This document shows, in pieces, positions 13,003 to 21,247 of a stretch of 53,428 bases of DNA. The translations under genes were made by a program, and so were the position numbers. Below the pieces are notes generated by a model. That model saw only the letters and a program-made list of their open reading frames with translations. It made no database searches and was not told where the DNA came from. Each line of letters opens with the position of its first letter. Positions within the stretch are counted from its first letter, which is position 1. Source of the DNA: Candidatus Woesearchaeota archaeon (GTDB taxonomy: Archaea > Nanobdellota > Nanobdellia > Woesearchaeales > WJKL01); assembly GCA_014729675.1 (NCBI GenBank), contig WJJM01000044.1:1-53428 (forward strand), written 5' to 3'.

Positions 13003-13214
13003 CCAGGATAAAAAAACCTATCTATTTATCCATTTTTTATCAATGTTATCTATCTTTTAGAGTAAGGTTTATAAATATATTTACCCTATATCACATTAGA
13101 GAATTATCTCCTAAAAGTGGAATAATAAAATTACCCTTGGGTGAAACACCAAAAAAAGATATATGATTCACTCAATTTCCCAAAGAACAATATTATTTTT
13201 TGGGGGCGATAGAT

Positions 13215-14003
13215 ATGTTATCAACTAAGAAAATGATAACTCCTTTACTGGAGTTAGGGCTGAACAAATACGAGGCAAAAGTATACCTCACTTTAATAGG
13301 AGAAGGCATCTCCACAGCAAAAAATATCTCAGACATAACAGGAATACCTTATGGAAAGGTATATGAGATAATAAACAGCTTGGCAGGAAAAGGATTCTGC
13401 AAGATCCTTCCTTCAAAACCTATGAAATGCCAGGCCATCTCTCCAAAACAAGCCATAGATAAGGCCAAAGAGAGCATGGAACAAAAATATAAGTCTCTCG
13501 AAAAGCATGTCCTTGAAGAGCTTGAGCCGATGTTTACAGAATCCAAGAAATTCATAGAGCCAAAAGGCGTTTTCTGGATAATCAACGGCCGAGCAAATGT
13601 TGTTAAGAAAATAGACGAGCTTATACAAAAAGCAGAGAAGAACATAAATATACACTGTTCGCCTAACAGCCTCTCAAGGCTTATCCTCCACAAGGACCTG
13701 CTGAAAGAGGCAAAAGCAAGAGGAGTAGAGATATCGATTGCAGGAGTGATAGATAAAAAAGAGCTTCAGGAAGAGATAAAGAAACTGGATTTTTGCGACA
13801 TAAGAAAAGCAAAGACTGCAGAAAACAATCTTATATCCATAGACAACAAAGAAAGCCTTGTAGTAGAGCCCATCCCTGACGATGACAATATAATGTATGG
13901 GCGAGATCTTGGTATGCTGGTGTCTTCCTCTTCATTCACAAGATTTATAGACGAGTTCTTCACTCTGAATTTCAAGAAGGCAAGAAAACTATCGATGGAT
14001 TGA
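13215..14003 (+). CDS. TrmB-family transcription regulator (copy 1)
   Basis: LGLNKYEAKVYLTLIGEGISTAKNISDITGIPYGKVYEIINSLAGKGF winged HTH plus a TrmB-type C-terminal domain. ATG at 13215 is preferred over TTG at 13200. Confidence 0.8.
   Translation: MLSTKKMITPLLELGLNKYEAKVYLTLIGEGISTAKNISDITGIPYGKVYEIINSLAGKGFCKILPSKPMKCQAISPKQAIDKAKESMEQKYKSLEKHVLEELEPMFTESKKFIEPKGVFWIINGRANVVKKIDELIQKAEKNINIHCSPNSLSRLILHKDLLKEAKARGVEISIAGVIDKKELQEEIKKLDFCDIRKAKTAENNLISIDNKESLVVEPIPDDDNIMYGRDLGMLVSSSSFTRFIDEFFTLNFKKARKLSMD
13302..13377 (+). repeat. 76-nt tract 75/76 identical to 14178-14253 (inside the two TrmB genes)
   Basis: gaaggcatctccacagcaaaaaatatctcagacataacaggaataccttatggaaaggt[a/c]tatgagataataaaca. 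Flanking codons are diverged at the nucleotide level. Confidence 0.9.
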
Positions 14004-14093
14004 TTTTTTCTTTTCCTCTTTTAAGAGGTAATATGCTGTTCTTATTTTATCATATAAAAAAATGATATATATCCTGCTTAGTACAGCATTGGC

Positions 14094-14876
14094 ATGGATA
14101 CTTCAAGCACACTAAAGCCCCTTGAAGAAATGGGATTAAGCAAATACGAATCAAAGATATATCTTACTTTGATCAGCGAAGGCATCTCCACAGCAAAAAA
14201 TATCTCAGACATAACAGGAATACCTTATGGAAAGGTCTATGAGATAATAAACACGCTTTCTCAAAAGGGATTTGCCATGGTCCTGCCTTCTAAGCCAATG
14301 AAGTACAGCGCCGTATCCCCTCAGCAGTCCATAGCCAATGCAAGAAAAGAAGCTAGGAAGAGATTTGAGAAGATAGAATCCAGCCTGTTAAGGCAGCTTG
14401 AGCCGATATTTGCCAAAAACAAGAACTTTGCAGGCTCAAAAAGCAGTTTTCTGGTGATCAACGGAAGGTCAAACATTGTCAGAAGGACAGAAGAGATGAT
14501 AAAAAAGGCAAAGAAAAACATAAATATACAGTGCAGCGCAAATTCCCTGTCAAGGCTGATAATCCATAAAGAGGCATTAAAAGAAGCTGCAGATAATGGC
14601 GTGGAAATCTCGATAGCAGGGATAACAGGCAGTGAAAATGCAGAAGAGGTATCATCTCTGGGCTTTTGCAGGTTGAAACACATCGAGTCAGCCAAAAGCA
14701 ACCTGATATCTATAGATGGAAAAGAAAGCCTTATAACCAGCCCTTCTCCTGATGATGACAACATACTTTACGGAAGAGACTTAGGAATATCAGCTGCAAG
14801 CAGCTCTTTCACAAGATTCATAGATAATTTCTTTGAGATAAATTTTAAAAAAGCAAAGGAGATAAGATATAAATGA
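14094..14876 (+). CDS. TrmB-family transcription regulator (copy 2, tandem paralog)
   Basis: MGLSKYESKIYLTLISEGISTAKNISDITGIPYGKVYEIINTLSQKGF. Collinear with copy 1 over its whole length. Confidence 0.8.
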   Translation: MDTSSTLKPLEEMGLSKYESKIYLTLISEGISTAKNISDITGIPYGKVYEIINTLSQKGFAMVLPSKPMKYSAVSPQQSIANARKEARKRFEKIESSLLRQLEPIFAKNKNFAGSKSSFLVINGRSNIVRRTEEMIKKAKKNINIQCSANSLSRLIIHKEALKEAADNGVEISIAGITGSENAEEVSSLGFCRLKHIESAKSNLISIDGKESLITSPSPDDDNILYGRDLGISAASSSFTRFIDNFFEINFKKAKEIRYK

Positions 14877-15247
14877 AATACAGGAAAACTGCCCTTAAAA
14901 AAGATAAAAATCTCTGGGAAAGAGCCAAAAAGAAAACAGGCTGCGGCCAGGGAAAAAGACATTCTGCAAGAGCCTGCCAATTGGCTGTGAGGCTTTACAA
15001 GAAACTTGGAGGGAAATACAAGGGAAAGAAGACCAAGACAAGCCTTTCAAAATGGACAGACGAGAGGTGGGATTATACTGGCAAGCCGAAAAAATCAAGA
15101 TATCTTCCTGAAAAGGCCAGGAAAAAACTCACTAAAGAAGAAAAAGCCGCAACAAACAGGGTTAAAAACAAGGGCACTAAAAAAGGGAAGAAGTATGTCC
15201 CTTATTCTGAAAAGATAAAAAAGATAGTTAGAAAGGCTACAAGATGA
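14873..15247 (+). CDS. Highly basic small protein (124 aa)
   Basis: ATGA overlap with the TrmB-2 stop. HSARACQLAVRLYKKLGGKYKGKK....LSKWTDERW resembles, from memory, a small conserved domain seen in viral and bacterial hypothetical proteins. Unverified. Confidence 0.5.
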   Translation: MKYRKTALKKDKNLWERAKKKTGCGQGKRHSARACQLAVRLYKKLGGKYKGKKTKTSLSKWTDERWDYTGKPKKSRYLPEKARKKLTKEEKAATNRVKNKGTKKGKKYVPYSEKIKKIVRKATR

Positions 15248-15612
15248 GATACAGCCATATAAACTTCAGACCCCCTGCAGGAGCAAGAAAAGCTGCAAAA
15301 AGAGGACTTGAACTTAGAAAAAAATTCCACAGGGGCGGATTAAGTTCTAAAAAAGCAGGAAAATTGGGAATAGGCTCTGGCATAGTTCGGGCTGTAAATA
15401 TTTCTAAAGGCTCCAAGATATCCCCTGATACAGTAAGGCGCATGAAAAACTATTTTACAAGACACCAAAAAGATAAAAGGCCTGGCTGGGGCAATCCAGG
15501 GAATCCTACAAACGGATATATAGCCTGGATGTTGTGGGGAGGGGACCCAGGATTTGCATGGGCCAAAAAGATAGTCAAACAGATGGAAAATGAGGATAAA
15601 AGGTCCAGATAG
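15244..15612 (+). CDS. Basic small protein (122 aa)
   Basis: ATGA overlap with the previous gene. PPAGARKAAKRGLELRKKF.RGG...G..RA..ISKG..ISPDTVRRMKNYFTRH...GYIAWMLWGGDPGFAWAKK resembles a domain I recall from phage and prophage proteins. Unverified. Confidence 0.5.
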   Translation: MRYSHINFRPPAGARKAAKRGLELRKKFHRGGLSSKKAGKLGIGSGIVRAVNISKGSKISPDTVRRMKNYFTRHQKDKRPGWGNPGNPTNGYIAWMLWGGDPGFAWAKKIVKQMENEDKRSR

Positions 15613-15731
15613 CCCATTAATCCCTCTATAACCCTGATGCAGATCTGATTGTTATCCGAAAAGGGATAATAATATTCTTTCAGCCTGCAAAATAAAAAAA
15701 TAATATAACAGACCCCTCGTTGATATATTGC

Positions 15732-16949
15732 ATGTATCTGAAGACAGGAATCCCAAAACTAGATGAACTATTAGATGGAGGCATTGCAAGGAACAAGAGC
15801 ATATTATTCTATTCTTCTCCCGGAGTCGAGAATCTTCCCTTTGCATATCAGCTTCTGCTCAACAGGCTTGAGCAGGGAGATCACGTGATATACATGGTCA
15901 ACAATAAAAAGCCTGAATCAGTAAGATATATGATAAAGAACATAGGATGGGACGTTTCTGAATTTGAGAAAAAGGACAAATTCGCTTTCTTGGATGTATA
16001 CTCAGGATTGTTGGGTGAAAAGAGCAAGGAGAAATTTTCAGTTAGCGACACAGCAAATATTGATAAGATTCAGGAAGAGCTTATAAATGCATTGAGACAG
16101 TATAAAAACAAAAATACGATTGTTATATTTGACTCCTTGTCCAATCTGCTTGATATATGCGGCACTCCTGAAGACATAATAGCCTGCCTGCATGAATGCA
16201 TGCCCGACATAAAAAGATTTAATGCAACTCCTATCTTTCTTTTTACAGCATGGGCATATGATAAGAAAACTCTTGATAAGATAAGAACATCATTCGACTG
16301 CATTATCGACTTAAAAGCTATAGAAAGAAAAATCATATTAAGAAACTATTTTAATGTCTCTAAAGCAAGCTGGCTCAGAAAACTCAGGAGAAAGGATATC
16401 CCTTTTAAGATATCAAGACCAGGAGGAGTCAGGGTATATATCCCAAAAATTCTCGTAACAGGCCCATTTAATGCAGGTAAGACAAGCTTTATCCATTCAG
16501 CATCTACATCAGCTGTCTCCGTGGACAGGCTCGGGACCACAGTCGCATTAGACCACGGGCATGTGGATTTTAAAGGCTTCTCTGTAGACCTGTGGGGGAC
16601 TCCCGGCCAGAAAAGGTTTGATCCTATACTTGAGCAGCTTGGAAGCGAATCTTTGGGAGTCATAGTCTTAGTTGACAGCACTTCTCCTGAGGGGTTCGAA
16701 AGGGCAAGGGCCATGTTTGAGCTGACAAAAACCCAGGGGCTGCCGTCCATCGTAGCTGCGAACAAATCCAGCCTTAAGGGGGCAATGAAGCCTGTTGAAA
16801 TAAGGAAAATCATGAAACTGCCAAAAGATATCCCAATAATCCCTGTTTCAGCTGAAAATCCAAAGAAAGCAATGAAAAATCACCCTTGCAAACTTAAACA
16901 AAAAGACGTGGAAAATATTTTGTCAGGGTTATTCGAGATGGTAATATAA
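15732..16949 (+). CDS. Fusion protein: degenerate KaiC/RecA-like domain + small Ras-like/MglA-type (COG2229-like) GTPase domain
   Basis: N-terminal half: GIPKLDELLDGGIARNKSILFYSSPGVENLPFAYQ (GK[ST] of Walker A lost), IVIFDSLSNL. C-terminal half: G1 VTGPFNAGKTS, G2 LGTTVA, G3 DLWGTPGQ, G4-like AANKSS, G5-like VSAE. ATG at 15732 is preferred over TTG at 15720. Confidence 0.7.
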   Translation: MYLKTGIPKLDELLDGGIARNKSILFYSSPGVENLPFAYQLLLNRLEQGDHVIYMVNNKKPESVRYMIKNIGWDVSEFEKKDKFAFLDVYSGLLGEKSKEKFSVSDTANIDKIQEELINALRQYKNKNTIVIFDSLSNLLDICGTPEDIIACLHECMPDIKRFNATPIFLFTAWAYDKKTLDKIRTSFDCIIDLKAIERKIILRNYFNVSKASWLRKLRRKDIPFKISRPGGVRVYIPKILVTGPFNAGKTSFIHSASTSAVSVDRLGTTVALDHGHVDFKGFSVDLWGTPGQKRFDPILEQLGSESLGVIVLVDSTSPEGFERARAMFELTKTQGLPSIVAANKSSLKGAMKPVEIRKIMKLPKDIPIIPVSAENPKKAMKNHPCKLKQKDVENILSGLFEMVI

Positions 16950-16977: not shown

Positions 16978-17313
16978 ATGGCGTACAAAAATATCAATAC
17001 TGTATTAATATCATTAAGTATGGTATTTATGGCAGTCTCAGCATATTATTCCATAAAAGTAAGCAGGATATTTTCCTATAAAAACAGCTGGTTTTCCTTT
17101 GGAGGAAGACTAAAGACACTATGGAAAACCCTGCCGGCATTCATAATCTTTTTCCTTTTAGGATATATAGCGTATATGGTCGCATACCTAACTGGATCTA
17201 TTGTCAACTACATGCTGCTGACATCCCTGATATTCTTCTCAGGGGCATTATTCGTATTTGCGATAGTATATATAAATTTCAGGACGTTCAGGACAATCAA
17301 CAGGGAAAAATAA
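16978..17313 (+). CDS. Small integral membrane protein (3 predicted helices)
   Basis: Shine-Dalgarno-like GAGGAGG lies 9 nt upstream. Three hydrophobic segments. Stop is 1 nt before the next start. Confidence 0.6.
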   Translation: MAYKNINTVLISLSMVFMAVSAYYSIKVSRIFSYKNSWFSFGGRLKTLWKTLPAFIIFFLLGYIAYMVAYLTGSIVNYMLLTSLIFFSGALFVFAIVYINFRTFRTINREK

Positions 17314-17314
17314 T

Positions 17315-17686
17315 ATGGCTGAAACAAAAAAAAAGAAACTTAGCACAGTACTGCAGAAATTAACTTCAACAGGAGACATAGATGGAGCTGTTGTAATCAC
17401 AAGAGATGGCCTGCTTGTCGCTTCTGAACTTACTGAAAGCATCGATTCAGACACATTAGCAGCTATGGCAGCCACAATGACAGGGGCTGCAGAGACAGCG
17501 ATACAGGAGCTTAAGAAATCATCCCCTGACAGGGTAATTGTCGAATCAAAAAACACAAAGATGATAACTGTCGGCGCAGGAGACGATGCAATCCTAGTGT
17601 GCATCATGAAACCTTCTGCAAAACTTGGAATAATCCTGCTTGAGATGAAGAAAGCTGCTGAAAAAATTGAAAAAGAGGTAAAATAG
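17315..17686 (+). CDS. Roadblock/LC7 (MglB-like) domain protein, copy 1
   Basis: LQKLTSTGDIDGAVVITRDGLLVASEL....DSDTLAAMAATMTGAAETA.......VIVESKNTKMITVGAGDDAILVCI is canonical Roadblock/LC7. Confidence 0.8.
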   Translation: MAETKKKKLSTVLQKLTSTGDIDGAVVITRDGLLVASELTESIDSDTLAAMAATMTGAAETAIQELKKSSPDRVIVESKNTKMITVGAGDDAILVCIMKPSAKLGIILLEMKKAAEKIEKEVK

Positions 17687-18946
17687 ATGAAAATAAGGTC
17701 AAAATTCATGATAGCATTCATATTGATCTTCTTATTATTTACATGCATATGCGGAACACTTTTTTACCGTTTCTCTGAGGCATATATTAAAAAAGAGATA
17801 TATTCGCATCTTCAGACCACAGCACAGTCAAGAGCAGAACACATAATATATTTTCTTGAAGAGCAGGAAAACAAGCTTGATCTTATCGCTACAGAACCCA
17901 CTCTCTTAAATTTCATAAAAACAGACAAAGATGATCCCGATTATGAATCATTAAGGAAAAATGCAAACAAAAGAATAAAAGAGATAGGCAAAGGAGTAGG
18001 CATATTTGATACAGAAGGGATAGTGCTTGCAGCAGAAAATAATCCTCCCGGAACAGACTATTCTGATACTGTTTTCTTCCAGAAAGACACCAACAAGACA
18101 GAGTATCTTATGTATTATGATATAGCCAGGGAAAATTACAACATAGGCGTTATCAAATGGATAAAAGACCAGGCTAATAGGCGGATTGGAGTGGTCGGTT
18201 TTGATATCCACGCTGAAGGATTATTTGAAATAACCACCGATACTACGGGACTAGGAGATACAGGAGAAGCATATCTTATCAACAAGGACATGATGATGAT
18301 AAGCCCATCAAGGTTCGAAGAAGACACAATATTCAGCCGGGAAGTGTTGACAGAAAAAGCGATCCACTGTTATGACACTAATAAACCTGCAAAAGAATAT
18401 GAAAGCAAGTCAGCACTGAATACATATAGGGATTATAGGGGTGAAGAAGTGATCGGAACTTATTATTATATACCTCAAACACGATGGTGCCTTATTGTAG
18501 AGATCGATGCGTCAGAAGCGCTGGTGCTGCTTGATACAATCAGGAATGTAATAATCATAGTATCTATTTTAGTATTTGTATTAGGTGCAGGAATGTTTTT
18601 CTTTGCTGCAGAAACAATAACTAAACCGATAAATAATCTAAAATGCTGCGCAGACAGGATAAAAAAAGGCAATCTCAAACAGAGATGCATAGTGAAGACA
18701 AGAGACGAATTGGAAAATCTTGCTCAGTCTTTTGATGATATGCGTCTGGCCATCAAAGACAGGAATGATCTTCTGGATTCCTTTTTAAATTCATTTAAAG
18801 GAAAATTTGGGAATATAGCCACAATACTTGCAAGAAAAGAGATAGAAAAACTTATCAAGAAAAACCCAAGAATAGAGGGGATACTCCCCGCATCTCTTAA
18901 GGAATCTGTAAAAAAAAGCAAAAAATTCAGAAATAAAAAAGATTAA
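17687..18946 (+). CDS. Membrane sensor: TM - Cache-like extracytoplasmic domain - TM - HAMP, with no recognisable output domain
   Basis: TM1 FMIAFILIFLLFTCICGTLFY. About 270-aa extracytoplasmic region (GIFDTEGIVLAAEN.., GEAYLINKDMMMISPSRF). TM2 IIIVSILVFVLGAGMFFFAAE. HAMP TKPINNLKCCADRIKKGNLKQRCIVKTRDELENLAQSFDDM. No H-box or ATPase motifs in the ~75-aa tail. Confidence 0.7.
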   Translation: MKIRSKFMIAFILIFLLFTCICGTLFYRFSEAYIKKEIYSHLQTTAQSRAEHIIYFLEEQENKLDLIATEPTLLNFIKTDKDDPDYESLRKNANKRIKEIGKGVGIFDTEGIVLAAENNPPGTDYSDTVFFQKDTNKTEYLMYYDIARENYNIGVIKWIKDQANRRIGVVGFDIHAEGLFEITTDTTGLGDTGEAYLINKDMMMISPSRFEEDTIFSREVLTEKAIHCYDTNKPAKEYESKSALNTYRDYRGEEVIGTYYYIPQTRWCLIVEIDASEALVLLDTIRNVIIIVSILVFVLGAGMFFFAAETITKPINNLKCCADRIKKGNLKQRCIVKTRDELENLAQSFDDMRLAIKDRNDLLDSFLNSFKGKFGNIATILARKEIEKLIKKNPRIEGILPASLKESVKKSKKFRNKKD

Positions 18947-18948
18947 AG

Positions 18949-19326
18949 ATGACTAAAGGCACAAAACAATCAAAACTGAAGAATATCCTTGAAGATCTGG
19001 ACAATATAGGTGATATAAAAGGCAGTATTGTAATCTCTGTAGACGGCCTTGTGATATCTTCCAACATTAAAGAAGGGATCGATACAGATACATTAGCAGC
19101 AATGTCTGCCGCGATGCAGGGAGCAGCAGAAACAGCTGTCTCAGAACTGAAGCAGGGCGGCCTTAAGCAGGTAGTGATAGAATCAGAAAAAGGGAAGATG
19201 GTATCCATATCTGCAGGAGAAGATGCGATCCTGATAATCCTGGCTAACAAAACAATCAATCTTGGGCTTGCTCTGCTGGAGTTAAGCAAAGCAGCAGGAT
19301 CAATATCCAAGATAATAGGTGAATAG
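18949..19326 (+). CDS. Roadblock/LC7 (MglB-like) domain protein, copy 2
   Basis: LEDLDNIGDIKGSIVISVDGLVISS.....DTDTLAAMSAAMQGAAETA....LKQVVIESEKGKMVSISAGEDAILIIL. Confidence 0.8.
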   Translation: MTKGTKQSKLKNILEDLDNIGDIKGSIVISVDGLVISSNIKEGIDTDTLAAMSAAMQGAAETAVSELKQGGLKQVVIESEKGKMVSISAGEDAILIILANKTINLGLALLELSKAAGSISKIIGE

Positions 19327-20139
19327 ATGGCAAAAAAAAACTACAACAAGCTTAATACCACACTGGTGCAAAATCTAAAGAAGAAGATAAAAGAGCTAAG
19401 AATATCTGAAGAAAAGTACAGGAAAGTGATAAACAACCTATCAGATATCATCTTTTCCTATGATCCCTATACCCTAAAGATAAATTTCATCACGCCCAAT
19501 GTGCATTCTTTTTTAGGATACAAGCCAGAAGAAGTTTTAGGACATAAGATAGACGAATTTATACACCCTGATGACAGGGAAAAAGTACTCAGTGAGCTAA
19601 AAGATTCATTGAAGACAAGAGAAGAAACCCCGACTGAGATCCGCTTATTAAAAAAAGACAACACACATATGTGGATAGAAGAAAGAGGAAAGATAGCAAA
19701 AAAAGAAGGAAAGATAGAAGGCATGTCCGGTGTAATAAGGAACATAACAGAAAAGAAAAAATCAGAGAAAAAACTTAGGGAAAGCGAACAGAAGTACAGG
19801 GCATTGTTCGATAAAGCAAATGATGCGATCTTCATAGCAGACCCATCCACTGGAAAGATAATCGACGCAAACGAACAGGCAGCAAAACTCCTGGGATTGC
19901 CGCTGAAAAAGATAATTGGCATGCACCAGACCAGACTGCATCCGCCTGATAAGGCAAATCTATATGCAAAGAAATTCAGGGATCATATCCAAAAAGGCCA
20001 TGCTGCTGATTTTGAAGCAGAGGTCATCACAAAAAACAAAAAAAGAATTCCTGTATATATCAGCGCAAGCGTTATAAAGATAGGCGGCAGGGATATCATA
20101 CAGGGAATCTTTAGAGACATATCAGACCTGAAAAAATGA
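19327..20139 (+). CDS. Tandem PAS-domain protein without output domain
   Basis: Two PAS-like units: EEKYRKVINNLSDIIFSYD...FLGYKPEEVLG and SEQKYRALFDKANDAIFIADPSTGKIIDANEQAAKLLG. TAG-ATG juxtaposition with the upstream gene. Confidence 0.7.
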   Translation: MAKKNYNKLNTTLVQNLKKKIKELRISEEKYRKVINNLSDIIFSYDPYTLKINFITPNVHSFLGYKPEEVLGHKIDEFIHPDDREKVLSELKDSLKTREETPTEIRLLKKDNTHMWIEERGKIAKKEGKIEGMSGVIRNITEKKKSEKKLRESEQKYRALFDKANDAIFIADPSTGKIIDANEQAAKLLGLPLKKIIGMHQTRLHPPDKANLYAKKFRDHIQKGHAADFEAEVITKNKKRIPVYISASVIKIGGRDIIQGIFRDISDLKK

Positions 20140-20768
20140 TAAACATTCCCAAAAATTCAGCTTCGATCATAGTAAGCCCCCCTCTGGAGGGGAAAAAGGA
20201 GTTAATGTTCCAGCTGATAAGGCGCGCGCTTCAGGATAAGGAGCCAGTCATATTTCTTTTGACAGATACATCCCCTGAAGAGATAAAAAAAGAGCTTCTT
20301 AAGAGCAAGATATATTATGGAGCAAAAAAAGGCCTGTTGAATTTTATTGACTGCTATTCCCAGCAGGCTGGAAATGATGTTTCAGATACTAAAGATACAA
20401 GAAGGATTTCAGGTCCCCTTGCATTCAACGAGATAAGCATAGCCCTTGCTCAGCTGGAGAAAGACCTGTTCAATACAAGCAAGAGCCACACTATAATATT
20501 TGATTCCCTGTCAACCATACTTATGTATTCTAATCCTCAGATGGCAGGCAGATTTCTCCAGATATTGATAGCAAAGATAAAGAATGCTGGCGGCTCTGTC
20601 TTATTTACACTTGAAGAAGGAATGCATAACAAGAAAGACATGATTACAATAGAGCATCTCATGCAGGCTATAATCCATCTGAAGCAGAAAAATAATAAGA
20701 TCATGATAAAAGCAGAAGGCATCAAGGACATGGAGGGGTGGAAAGAATTTAAAAACCAAAAACCTTAA
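20136..20768 (+). CDS. KaiC/RecA-like protein with degenerate Walker A
   Basis: ASIIVSPPLEGKKELMFQLIRRAL (P-loop-like, but GKK in place of GK[ST]), IIFDSLSTIL Walker-B-like. ATGA overlap with the PAS gene. Confidence 0.6.
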   Translation: MINIPKNSASIIVSPPLEGKKELMFQLIRRALQDKEPVIFLLTDTSPEEIKKELLKSKIYYGAKKGLLNFIDCYSQQAGNDVSDTKDTRRISGPLAFNEISIALAQLEKDLFNTSKSHTIIFDSLSTILMYSNPQMAGRFLQILIAKIKNAGGSVLFTLEEGMHNKKDMITIEHLMQAIIHLKQKNNKIMIKAEGIKDMEGWKEFKNQKP

Positions 20769-20854: not shown

Positions 20855-21247
20855 ATGGAAAGCAGGCAAAAAGTGATCATCGCAGATGATGAAAGAGCAG
20901 TACGGGATCTGCTGGAGACCATATTCAGCGAAAGCTATGATGTTAATACAGCATCTGATGGAAAACAGGCTCTCGATACATACCTTACTTCAGGGGATAA
21001 TTGTTCTCCTGCAAGAGCAGTCATAACAGACAGGCAGATGCCTGGGAAAGACGGCTTTTATCTTGCATCTGAGATAAGAAAATATGATCCAGATATCCCC
21101 ATTGTCATGCTTAGCGGAGGGCTTTCACAGCAGGACATTGAAAGGGCATACAGTTCTGGAATAACACATATAGAACAAAAACCCATAAAAGATTTTATAG
21201 AGTTCAAATCAAATATAGACAAACTTGTATTGGATTATCTTCGATAA
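20855..21247 (+). CDS. Stand-alone response-regulator receiver (CheY-like) domain protein
   Basis: VIIADDE, phospho-acceptor context VITDRQMPGKDG, VMLSG, EQKP. Confidence 0.8.
   Translation: MESRQKVIIADDERAVRDLLETIFSESYDVNTASDGKQALDTYLTSGDNCSPARAVITDRQMPGKDGFYLASEIRKYDPDIPIVMLSGGLSQQDIERAYSSGITHIEQKPIKDFIEFKSNIDKLVLDYLR

Follow-up and report, generated by a model that had tools for sequence, protein, structure and literature searches.

The 53,428-nucleotide stretch analysed here (in its whole length, the window) is the forward strand of contig WJJM01000044.1 of a Candidatus Woesearchaeota archaeon (assembly GCA_014729675.1), the genome of which amounts to 1.44 Mb in 72 contigs and is 91.7% complete. 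Positions 15732..16949 of the forward strand, on which all features of the window described below also lie, encode a protein of 405 residues, P0001, in which a KaiC/RecA-like domain of the inactivated type (iKaiC) is joined to a small GTPase. This iKaiC::GTPase fusion gene was delineated by its open reading frame (ORF), by Pfam matches to KaiC and small GTPase families, and by 118 full-length homologues, the alignment of which underlies every homologue conservation count below unless stated otherwise. An alternative TTG start exists at 15720; the homologues instead begin at the ATG position. A preliminary description, prepared from the DNA letters alone, had proposed a single polypeptide composed of a KaiC-like half devoid of GK[ST] and a GTPase half with intact G1, G2 and G3 motifs and a G4 motif of NKSS. 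All of these points were borne out: the 405-residue ORF is uninterrupted, the Pfam match and the alignment to the solved structure PH0284 agree on the N-terminal half, the first three GTPase motifs are present, and the NKSS that stands in place of NKxD is spelled by the codons AAC AAA TCC AGC at 16761..16772.

The N-terminal domain (residues 1-235, 15732..16436) is matched by the Pfam KaiC family PF06745 over residues 3-237 (E 1.3e-27, 97.1 bits against a cut-off of 26.6) and by the fold of PH0284, the NCBIfam matches of this half to KaiC/ArlH being all sub-threshold. On the C-terminal domain (residues 236-405, 16437..16946), the Pfam small GTPase models Arf, MMR_HSR1 and Ras fall on residues 239-365, NCBIfam returns only the generic TIGR00231, and structural matches to Arf6 and MglA were obtained. 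The gene belongs to an operon that also contains two Roadblock/LC7 genes, sensor genes, and a gene for a second degenerate KaiC-like protein, iKaiC2, the predicted partner of the fusion.

The GTPase half and its fourth motif

The nucleotide-binding motifs of the C-terminal half are strongly conserved. In the G1 or P-loop motif GPFNAGKTS (16461..16487), G244, G249, K250 and S252 are invariant, as are R266, T269 and T270 in the G2 motif RLGTT of switch I (16527..16541). Within the G3 motif DLWGTPGQ of switch II (16587..16610), D286, G289, P291 and G292 are found in 118/118 homologues, T290 in 116 and Q293 in 117. N344 and K345 of G4 and the Ala (A374) of the G5-like motif SAE (16848..16856) are invariant too. 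Residue 294 (16611-16613), which follows directly on the catalytic Gln of G3, is Lys in P0001, turning GQERF into GQKRF; Glu occupies this position in 111 of the 118 homologues and Lys in only five.

Groups 2-5 of the MglA family are distinguished by a Thr replacing the intrinsic Arg of group 1 in G2 and by a G3 motif of GTPGQ, and their MglB partners have a common Asp-Gly pair (PMC4316618). The fusion carries the corresponding G1 P-loop, G2 'TT' and G3 GTPGQ; it departs from the family in the Asp of G4 and in not being a single domain of about 160-200 residues. In MglA proteins, G4 reads [NT]KxD in groups 1, 4 and 5 and deviates in groups 2 and 3 while still containing Asp (PMC4316618). The closest stand-alone relatives of the GTPase half, proteins of about 176 residues named 'ATP/GTP-binding protein', possess xTT, GTPGQ and NK[QT]D, motifs also found in the 86 distant stand-alone relatives compared. 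In structural comparison, the C-terminal domain matched Arf6 with a Z-score of 18.9 and MglA with one of 17.0, a measure that does not separate MglA from Arf/Rab. On the strength of its motifs and of its coupling to Roadblock, the C-terminal half is best read as a small GTPase of MglA groups 2-5, and no other GTPase of MglA type turned up in the 1.44-Mb genome of the host.

The preliminary description had asked whether NKSS is specific to a clade, and this was examined on a tree of 180 non-identical fusions, 136 from a DPANN/Altiarchaeota subfamily and 44 from a euryarchaeal subfamily. The fourth residue of G4 is Asp in 93 of them, Asn in 85, Glu in one and Ser in one, the Ser being unique to P0001 (1/180) and separated from Asn by a single transition (AAC to AGC). 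NKSS is hence a singleton and marks no clade; what was found at the level of clades is a toggling between Asp and Asn at this site, for which the tree needs at least 24 changes. Every Asn belongs to the DPANN/Altiarchaeota subfamily (n = 136), in which 85 members have Asn, 49 Asp, one Ser and one Glu. The euryarchaeal fusions have NKQD in 44/44, and the distant stand-alone relatives NKQD in 85/86 and NKTD in 1/86. No column compensating for, or co-varying with, the Asp/Asn state was found, either by mutual information or, subsequently, in 15 supported independent pairs on the tree. To judge from these alignments, the G4 Asp is unconstrained in the DPANN/Altiarchaeota subfamily.

Recognition of guanine depends mainly on the G4 Asp (PMC4316618), and engineered replacement of this Asp by Asn in Ypt1 (D124N) was shown to switch the specificity to xanthine nucleotides while abolishing GTP and GDP binding (PMC2120555); the same device was used in a Ran mutant (PMC2120845). 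Given the effect in Ypt1, natural toggling at this site is unexpected. The mutants and the present family are altered at the same NKxD position, but the former are laboratory-made and dominant-negative in vivo, whereas the natural replacements, by Asn in 85 of the 180 fusions and by Ser in P0001, are recurrent and evidently tolerated. The GTPase half of P0001 shares 73-79% identity with its closest relatives, a level not below that of the N-terminal half, and is as conserved as in Asp-bearing relatives, the only residue of at least 90% conservation that differs being residue 294 (E294K); P0001 is therefore under purifying selection. Decay of the GTPase half was considered and rejected, its conservation equalling that of the Asp-bearing relatives. 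From the pattern as a whole we infer a clade-specific relaxation of guanine recognition, with low affinity and fast exchange independent of an exchange factor for guanine nucleotides (GEF), and not a loss of function.

Two other accounts of the altered G4 motif have to be weighed. The GTPase domain of the DPANN/Altiarchaeota subfamily might use a purine nucleotide other than GTP, such as ATP or one resembling xanthosine triphosphate (XTP) or inosine triphosphate (ITP), or might discriminate poorly between them. This would agree with the switch of Ypt1, and likewise of Ran, to xanthine nucleotides (PMC2120555, PMC2120845), and with the distribution of Asn (85 of 136 subfamily members) and Ser (P0001) in a subfamily whose 86 stand-alone and 44 euryarchaeal relatives all have Asp. 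A discrete change of ligand, however, would more likely be fixed within clades, and Asp and Asn have replaced each other at least 24 times in close relatives with no compensating column in the 15 independent pairs; the invariance of N344, K345 and the G5 Ala also speaks against it. Xanthine nucleotides are not known as abundant signals in cells, and a changed specificity is on the whole regarded as unlikely. The second account, by which the domain would be a pseudo-GTPase that functions independently of nucleotide and the fusion a passive scaffold, is less probable again: the loss of the G4 Asp and the tolerance of the family for decay at a nucleotide site, as displayed by the N-terminal domain, could be cited in its favour, but the G1, G2 and G3 residues are invariant or nearly so in 118 homologues and intact in P0001, the conservation of the domain matches that in relatives with Asp, and the Roadblock partners have been kept.

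The N-terminal half and its predicted partner

The Walker A position of the N-terminal half is degenerate, reading YSSPGVENLPF at residues 27-37 (15810..15842), where PH0284 has GPGTGKT. In the alignment to PH0284 (2dr3), a RecA-superfamily ATPase and the best solved relative, the stretch SSPGVENLPF lies under the Walker A sequence GGPGTGKTIF, so that GK[ST] has been lost rather than misaligned. The preliminary description had allowed for a functional P-loop being found in this half by profile alignment; both profile and structure alignments instead put PGVEN at the position of GKT. The loss extends to the whole family, which has xxPG[VI][ED][ND]xxF at this position (P30 in 117/118, G31 and F37 in 118/118) and GK[ST] in none of the 118 fusion homologues. 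Strand 2 ends in Y-x-V-N-N-K and is devoid of Glu, with NN at residues 57-58, the position of the catalytic Glu pair in KaiC, followed by a Lys (K59) that is present in 116/118. On the Walker-B-like strand IVIFDSLS (residues 130-137, 16119..16142), D134 does not vary within the DPANN/Altiarchaeota subfamily; in its place, members of the euryarchaeal subfamily have G, E, S or C (FGSLST).

The KaiC fold of this half is intact in the AlphaFold2 model of the fusion (predicted local distance difference test, pLDDT, 89.4; predicted template modelling score, pTM, 0.84). Compared with PH0284 2dr3, the domain gave a template modelling (TM) score of 0.87-0.89, normalised to the target chain, with a root-mean-square deviation (rmsd) of 2.1, and in a second comparison a Z-score of 29.3 with an rmsd of 2.0 over 226 residues. 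Further Z-scores were 27.4 for SSO2452 (2w0m), 25.8 for KaiC-CI and 22.7 for ArlH/FlaH, and, for folds that build hetero-oligomers, 20.1 for Elp456 (4a8j_D) and about 19.7 for RAD51 paralogues (BCDX2, 19.7). Judged by its motifs, the loss of the P-loop is family-wide and the N-terminal half is a KaiC-fold pseudo-ATPase. It corresponds to the 'iKaiC' (inactivated KaiC) class, which is attributed to Makarova et al. 2017 by Galperin et al. 2018 (PMC5847659).

A close relative of this domain also occurs on its own, as a protein of 232 residues (L047:8211-8909, G092:C1; phmmer E 8e-48, Pfam KaiC 6e-21) with no GTPase or Roadblock gene nearby. It is flanked by genes for a PAS histidine kinase and a 627-residue protein on one side and by an anaerobic ribonucleotide reductase gene (NrdD) on the other.

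The second KaiC-like protein of the operon, iKaiC2 (20136..20768, 210 residues, DUF7504/KaiC), was identified by Pfam, synteny and complex prediction. Its family alignment (A2) has a Walker A motif of GPPxxGK[EKD], in which the Lys is kept and the Mg-binding Ser/Thr is always replaced by Glu, Lys or Asp; the Walker-B Asp is variable (D, N, E, Q or H), and D72, S124, S126, R139 and F140 are invariant. There are Altiarchaeota members of iKaiC2 that lack the GK as well. As far as the motifs tell, iKaiC2 and the N-terminal domain of the fusion together show graded stages of P-loop decay in a single module. A weak match of iKaiC2 to the Elp5 family PF10483 was also noted.

Prediction of the complex between the fusion and iKaiC2 gave an interface score (ipSAE) of 0.85, against 0.36 for the best of three controls. 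In the calibration of this score, 58 of 80 solved complexes came up to the mark, as did 2 of 110 mismatched pairs; these counts are only a rough guide here because family alignments of our own were used for both proteins. At least 97% of contacts are common to the prediction runs, and a pLDDT of 85 or more was obtained for the partner. On the side of the fusion, the predicted interface comprises residues 28, 30-34 (the dead P-loop), 58-60, 62-67, 90-94, 137-142, 172-176 and 200-202, among them the conserved P30, G31, K59, D141, W174 and Y176; iKaiC2 contributes helices 92-112 and 131-152, with R139 and F140 among their residues. The predicted interface is heterologous. The model supports binding of iKaiC2 on the dead P-loop face of the fusion, and the former ATP face appears in this model to have been turned into a contact between subunits, as in RecA-fold hetero-oligomers of the Elp456 type.

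That the N-terminal domain has remained an ATPase or kinase, with a non-canonical loop for ATP binding, is very improbable. Its fold is fully KaiC-like, and the DPANN/Altiarchaeota subfamily has retained the Walker-B D134 and the conserved K59; against this, no member has GK[ST], Asn-Asn stands at residues 57-58 where KaiC has its catalytic Glu pair, the sister subfamily has lost the Walker-B Asp too and yet kept the architecture, and in the predicted complex iKaiC2 buries the loop.

Spread of the fusion, its cassette and its operon

A search of 5.8 billion proteins returned more than 100 full-length proteins of 400-426 residues with the same two-domain Pfam pattern and 49-77% identity, and a scan of one GTDB genome per prokaryotic species returned 271 loci with the same uninterrupted architecture. 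The hosts are Woesearchaeota/Nanoarchaeia, Altiarchaeota, Methanoperedens (including a RefSeq genome of the anaerobic methanotrophic lineage ANME-2d), ANME-2, Methanocellales, Hydrothermarchaeales and one Thermofilaceae metagenome-assembled genome (MAG). The ESM Atlas adds further clusters, few members of which are of known phylum, most often Thermoplasmatota. Within the phylum of the host, the distribution is patchy, the full-length fusion occurring in about 13 of 401 high-quality genomes sampled and weak KaiC-like matches in 137 of the 401, the latter count being the only one to take in the unpublished genome G244, which supports no claim made in this text. The fusion is a large archaeal family and not a rarity.

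The preliminary description knew of no described KaiC-GTPase fusion. In our literature search, no paper on such a fusion was found, although Makarova et al. 2017 (mBio) might already list it, and to this extent the statement stands; any implication of rarity does not, as members of this large archaeal family are already deposited in public databases under the generic names 'GTP-binding protein' and 'ATPase domain-containing protein'. A frameshift or assembly join, named in the preliminary description as an artefact that would make the fusion spurious, is practically excluded, since no supporting evidence for it was found and the same uninterrupted ORF recurs in 118 full-length proteins from independent assemblies and in 271 species-representative loci (one genome carrying it is a single contig of 1.3 Mb), with invariant junction residues (P224, P230, G231, G232, P238 and K239 in an alignment of 34 sequences) and, in the AlphaFold2 model, a single beta-strand (232-243) that leaves the final hairpin of the KaiC fold, crosses the domain boundary and continues as strand 1 of the GTPase.

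Two observations on the genomes concerned may be added. In a Hydrothermarchaeaceae MAG (L111) and a Halobacteriota MAG (L120), there are two copies of the fusion per locus with Roadblock genes between them, and the module appears to have been tandemly duplicated. Fusions of DPANN type, 47-75% identical to P0001, are also found on contigs labelled 'uncultured Methanosarcinales archaeon' (L048, L050, L061 and L081). The match coordinates of L048 are those of the G321 locus, from the same family as the window genome, and L061 and L081 likewise coincide with G214 and G364, from the same order; the NCBI organism labels of these third-party annotation (TPA) MAGs look unreliable.

The neighbours of the fusion gene are conserved with it. 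A Roadblock gene was present at 12 of 12 loci from the same phylum and a short second KaiC-like protein at 10 of 12; among 80 loci across the Archaea, the figures were 72 for Roadblock, 58 for the second KaiC-like gene and 53 for both. At 54 of these 80, the Roadblock gene starts within 60 nucleotides downstream of the fusion or overlaps its end. The partner Roadblocks (n = 87) have D31 in 86 and G32 in 87, the RDGL motif being kept in 86-87; the Asp-Gly pair is the mark of MglB/MfpD proteins coupled to groups 2-5 (PMC4316618, PMC13015309). The euryarchaeal order is iKaiC2-fusion-Roadblock, with gaps of one nucleotide or overlaps of four and with iKaiC2 often translationally coupled to the fusion, and at DPANN loci the core genes have sensor genes in between, with a TrmB regulator in most cases upstream. 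The fusion gene is better understood as one member of a cassette that also comprises Roadblock and a second pseudo-KaiC than on its own. At one locus (L046:4327-7008, G317:C11), a cassette of iKaiC2, two Roadblocks and the fusion adjoins a gene for a protein of 893 residues with a Roadblock-like region (phmmer E 5e-22), a Roadblock that seems to be embedded in a large multidomain protein.

In the window, the fusion gene is followed after 28 nucleotides by a gene for a predicted membrane protein of 111 residues (16978..17313) with three hydrophobic segments and no Pfam family, homologues of which follow the fusion in close relatives only, namely L034 (= L048), L050 and L061. Next come Roadblock/LC7 (MglB-like) protein 1 (17315..17686; PF03259, E 7e-18), a dCache_1-HAMP transmembrane sensor devoid of an output domain (17687..18946; by Pfam, and recurrent in related DPANN loci), Roadblock/LC7 (MglB-like) protein 2 (18949..19326; PF03259, E 6e-19), a cytoplasmic PAS-PAS sensor protein (19327..20139; Pfam) and iKaiC2, all with gaps of at most two nucleotides or overlaps of four from the membrane protein onwards. 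A stand-alone receiver (REC) domain protein (20855..21247; PF00072, E 4.5e-18) follows after 86 nucleotides. Two diverged Roadblock genes thus flank the Cache-HAMP sensor here, where most loci of the family have one, and they are the only Roadblock genes in the host genome. This suggests a Roadblock heterodimer, or separate Roadblocks on the sensor side and on the GTPase side.

Upstream of the fusion, two tandem genes for regulators of the TrmB family (13200-14003 and 14094-14876, together 13200..14876) were recognised by Pfam, and TrmB is directly upstream of the fusion at many loci of DPANN type; the pair is possibly an output or a regulator of the operon. Between the second TrmB gene and the fusion (14873-15612) lie two overlapping genes with ATGA junctions for very basic proteins of 124 and 122 residues, neither of which has a match in Pfam or NCBIfam.

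Proposed mechanism and relation to known systems

The reading put forward here, to which we would assign a probability of about 70%, is that the fusion is a switch of G-protein type carried on a pseudo-ATPase scaffold, bound by iKaiC2, regulated by Roadblock proteins, and wired to Cache-HAMP, PAS and receiver proteins. It starts from observations, namely the joining of the two domains, the state of the motifs, the conserved gene neighbourhood and the phyletic distribution. The on or off state of the GTPase would be set by the adjacent Roadblock/MglB-like proteins, probably acting as a dimeric GTPase-activating protein (GAP) or regulator by analogy with MglA-MglB and MfpB-MfpD. The N-terminal half would be a pseudo-ATPase with no canonical binding of ATP, and its former nucleotide face, made up of the dead P-loop, the tip of strand 2 and the regions after Walker B, would have been turned into a protein-protein interface. 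The fold and the contact between iKaiC and iKaiC2 as predicted would have this face bind iKaiC2 head-to-tail, giving a heterodimer or possibly an alternating ring in the manner of Elp456 and the RAD51 paralogues. As the two halves share a beta-strand, the junction is taken to be rigid, and a rigid junction would mean that the scaffold keeps the GTPase in a fixed geometry. The core trio would receive its signal through the Cache-HAMP membrane sensor, the PAS-PAS protein, the small membrane protein and the receiver, with TrmB upstream, the result being a kinase-less counterpart of the actinobacterial conservon. The course of this signal, the part of the Roadblocks as GAP, the formation of a ring and the kinetics of nucleotide exchange are all inferred from the arrangement.

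Several points weigh against this reading. Since Asn in Ypt1 abolishes GTP and GDP binding, the proposal that the members with Asn or Ser are still GTPases is an assumption. In a profile search of the GTPase-domain alignment against the PDB, Arf, Sec4 and Rab8 came out on top and MglA fell outside the top 60, and the structural Z-scores for Arf6 and MglA amount to a tie; as neither profile nor structure favours MglA, the assignment to groups 2-5 rests on the motif signatures and the coupling to Roadblock. The complex modelled was the heterodimer of the fusion and iKaiC2, and solved homo-oligomers of KaiC/RecA exist, a likeness to which may account for part of its score. No Roadblock was found at E 1e-4 in five Methanocellales/Methanosarcinales loci and in three others where the contig is short or ends just past the gene. 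Finally, our search of the literature turned up no experimental or biochemical study of any member of the family.

A further-reaching version of the proposal is offered as speculative and, on balance, doubtful. The DPANN/Altiarchaeota branch would then consist of Ras-like switches that have dispensed with strict guanine recognition, drawing on another or a broader pool of nucleotides or serving as very low-affinity, GEF-free sensors of the level of purine nucleotides in the cell. They would be carried by a hetero-oligomeric ring made up of two dead ATPases of KaiC type, the former ATP sites of which have been turned into interfaces.

One close parallel is the conservon of Actinobacteria (CvnA-D in Streptomyces and MfpA-E in Mycobacterium), in which, as here, a HAMP membrane sensor, one or more Roadblocks and a GTPase of MglA type are encoded in an operon with the same logic of membrane sensor to G-protein. 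In that system, membrane sensor, Roadblock and GTPase act together, and a dimer of MfpD binds one GTPase (MfpB) and acts as a GAP (PMC13015309). Unlike CvnA, the sensor in the window has dCache_1 and HAMP only, with neither HisKA nor HATPase; two pseudo-KaiC modules take the place of DUF742; and the host is an archaeon. The best match to DUF742 (CvnC/MfpC, PF05331) in the host genome, which is 91.7% complete, scored 20.8 bits, below the cut-off, and lies on another contig.

With the MglA/MglB pair, the fusion shares a small GTPase of the Ras superfamily with 'TT' and GTPGQ beside one or two Roadblock/MglB genes with Asp-Gly. It differs from MglA in that its GTPase is permanently joined to a pseudo-KaiC domain of 235 residues, in a G4 of NKSS here and NKx[N/D] in the subfamily where groups 1, 4 and 5 keep [NT]KxD, and in having a second pseudo-KaiC protein as neighbour. 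The survey by Wuichet and Sogaard-Andersen took small single-domain GTPases (PMC4316618), so that a fusion of 405 residues would have been beyond its range. The archaeal KaiC-like 'signal transduction hubs' and iKaiC proteins have the same single-domain KaiC/RecA fold (Z 22-29), and the fusion of inactivated KaiC domains to signalling domains is a recognised archaeal theme (PMC5847659). The partner in the present family, in contrast with known iKaiC fusions, is a small GTPase, a combination not found in the literature searched. To Elp456 and the RAD51-paralogue complexes, the likeness consists of the RecA/KaiC-like fold and, as predicted, the packing of unlike subunits through a former ATP face, but there is no detectable orthology and those systems have no GTPase attached. 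The fusion belongs to neither the KaiC nor the MglA family, since it lacks the catalytic features that define the former and departs from the latter in G4 and in not being a single domain.

Archaeal signal transduction is poorly understood. KaiC-like proteins have been put forward as its hubs, and pairs of MglA and Roadblock are seen as ancient relatives of the small GTPase systems of eukaryotes. The fusion family joins these two themes physically and is conserved from DPANN to methanotrophic archaea. It would provide a compact system in which to study the control of a G-protein by a pseudo-ATPase scaffold and kinase-less signalling by membrane and PAS sensors, and its natural exchanges of Asp, Asn and Ser, at the very position used to reprogramme GTPases towards XTP, may offer a way to gauge how important the Asp of NKxD is in a native context.

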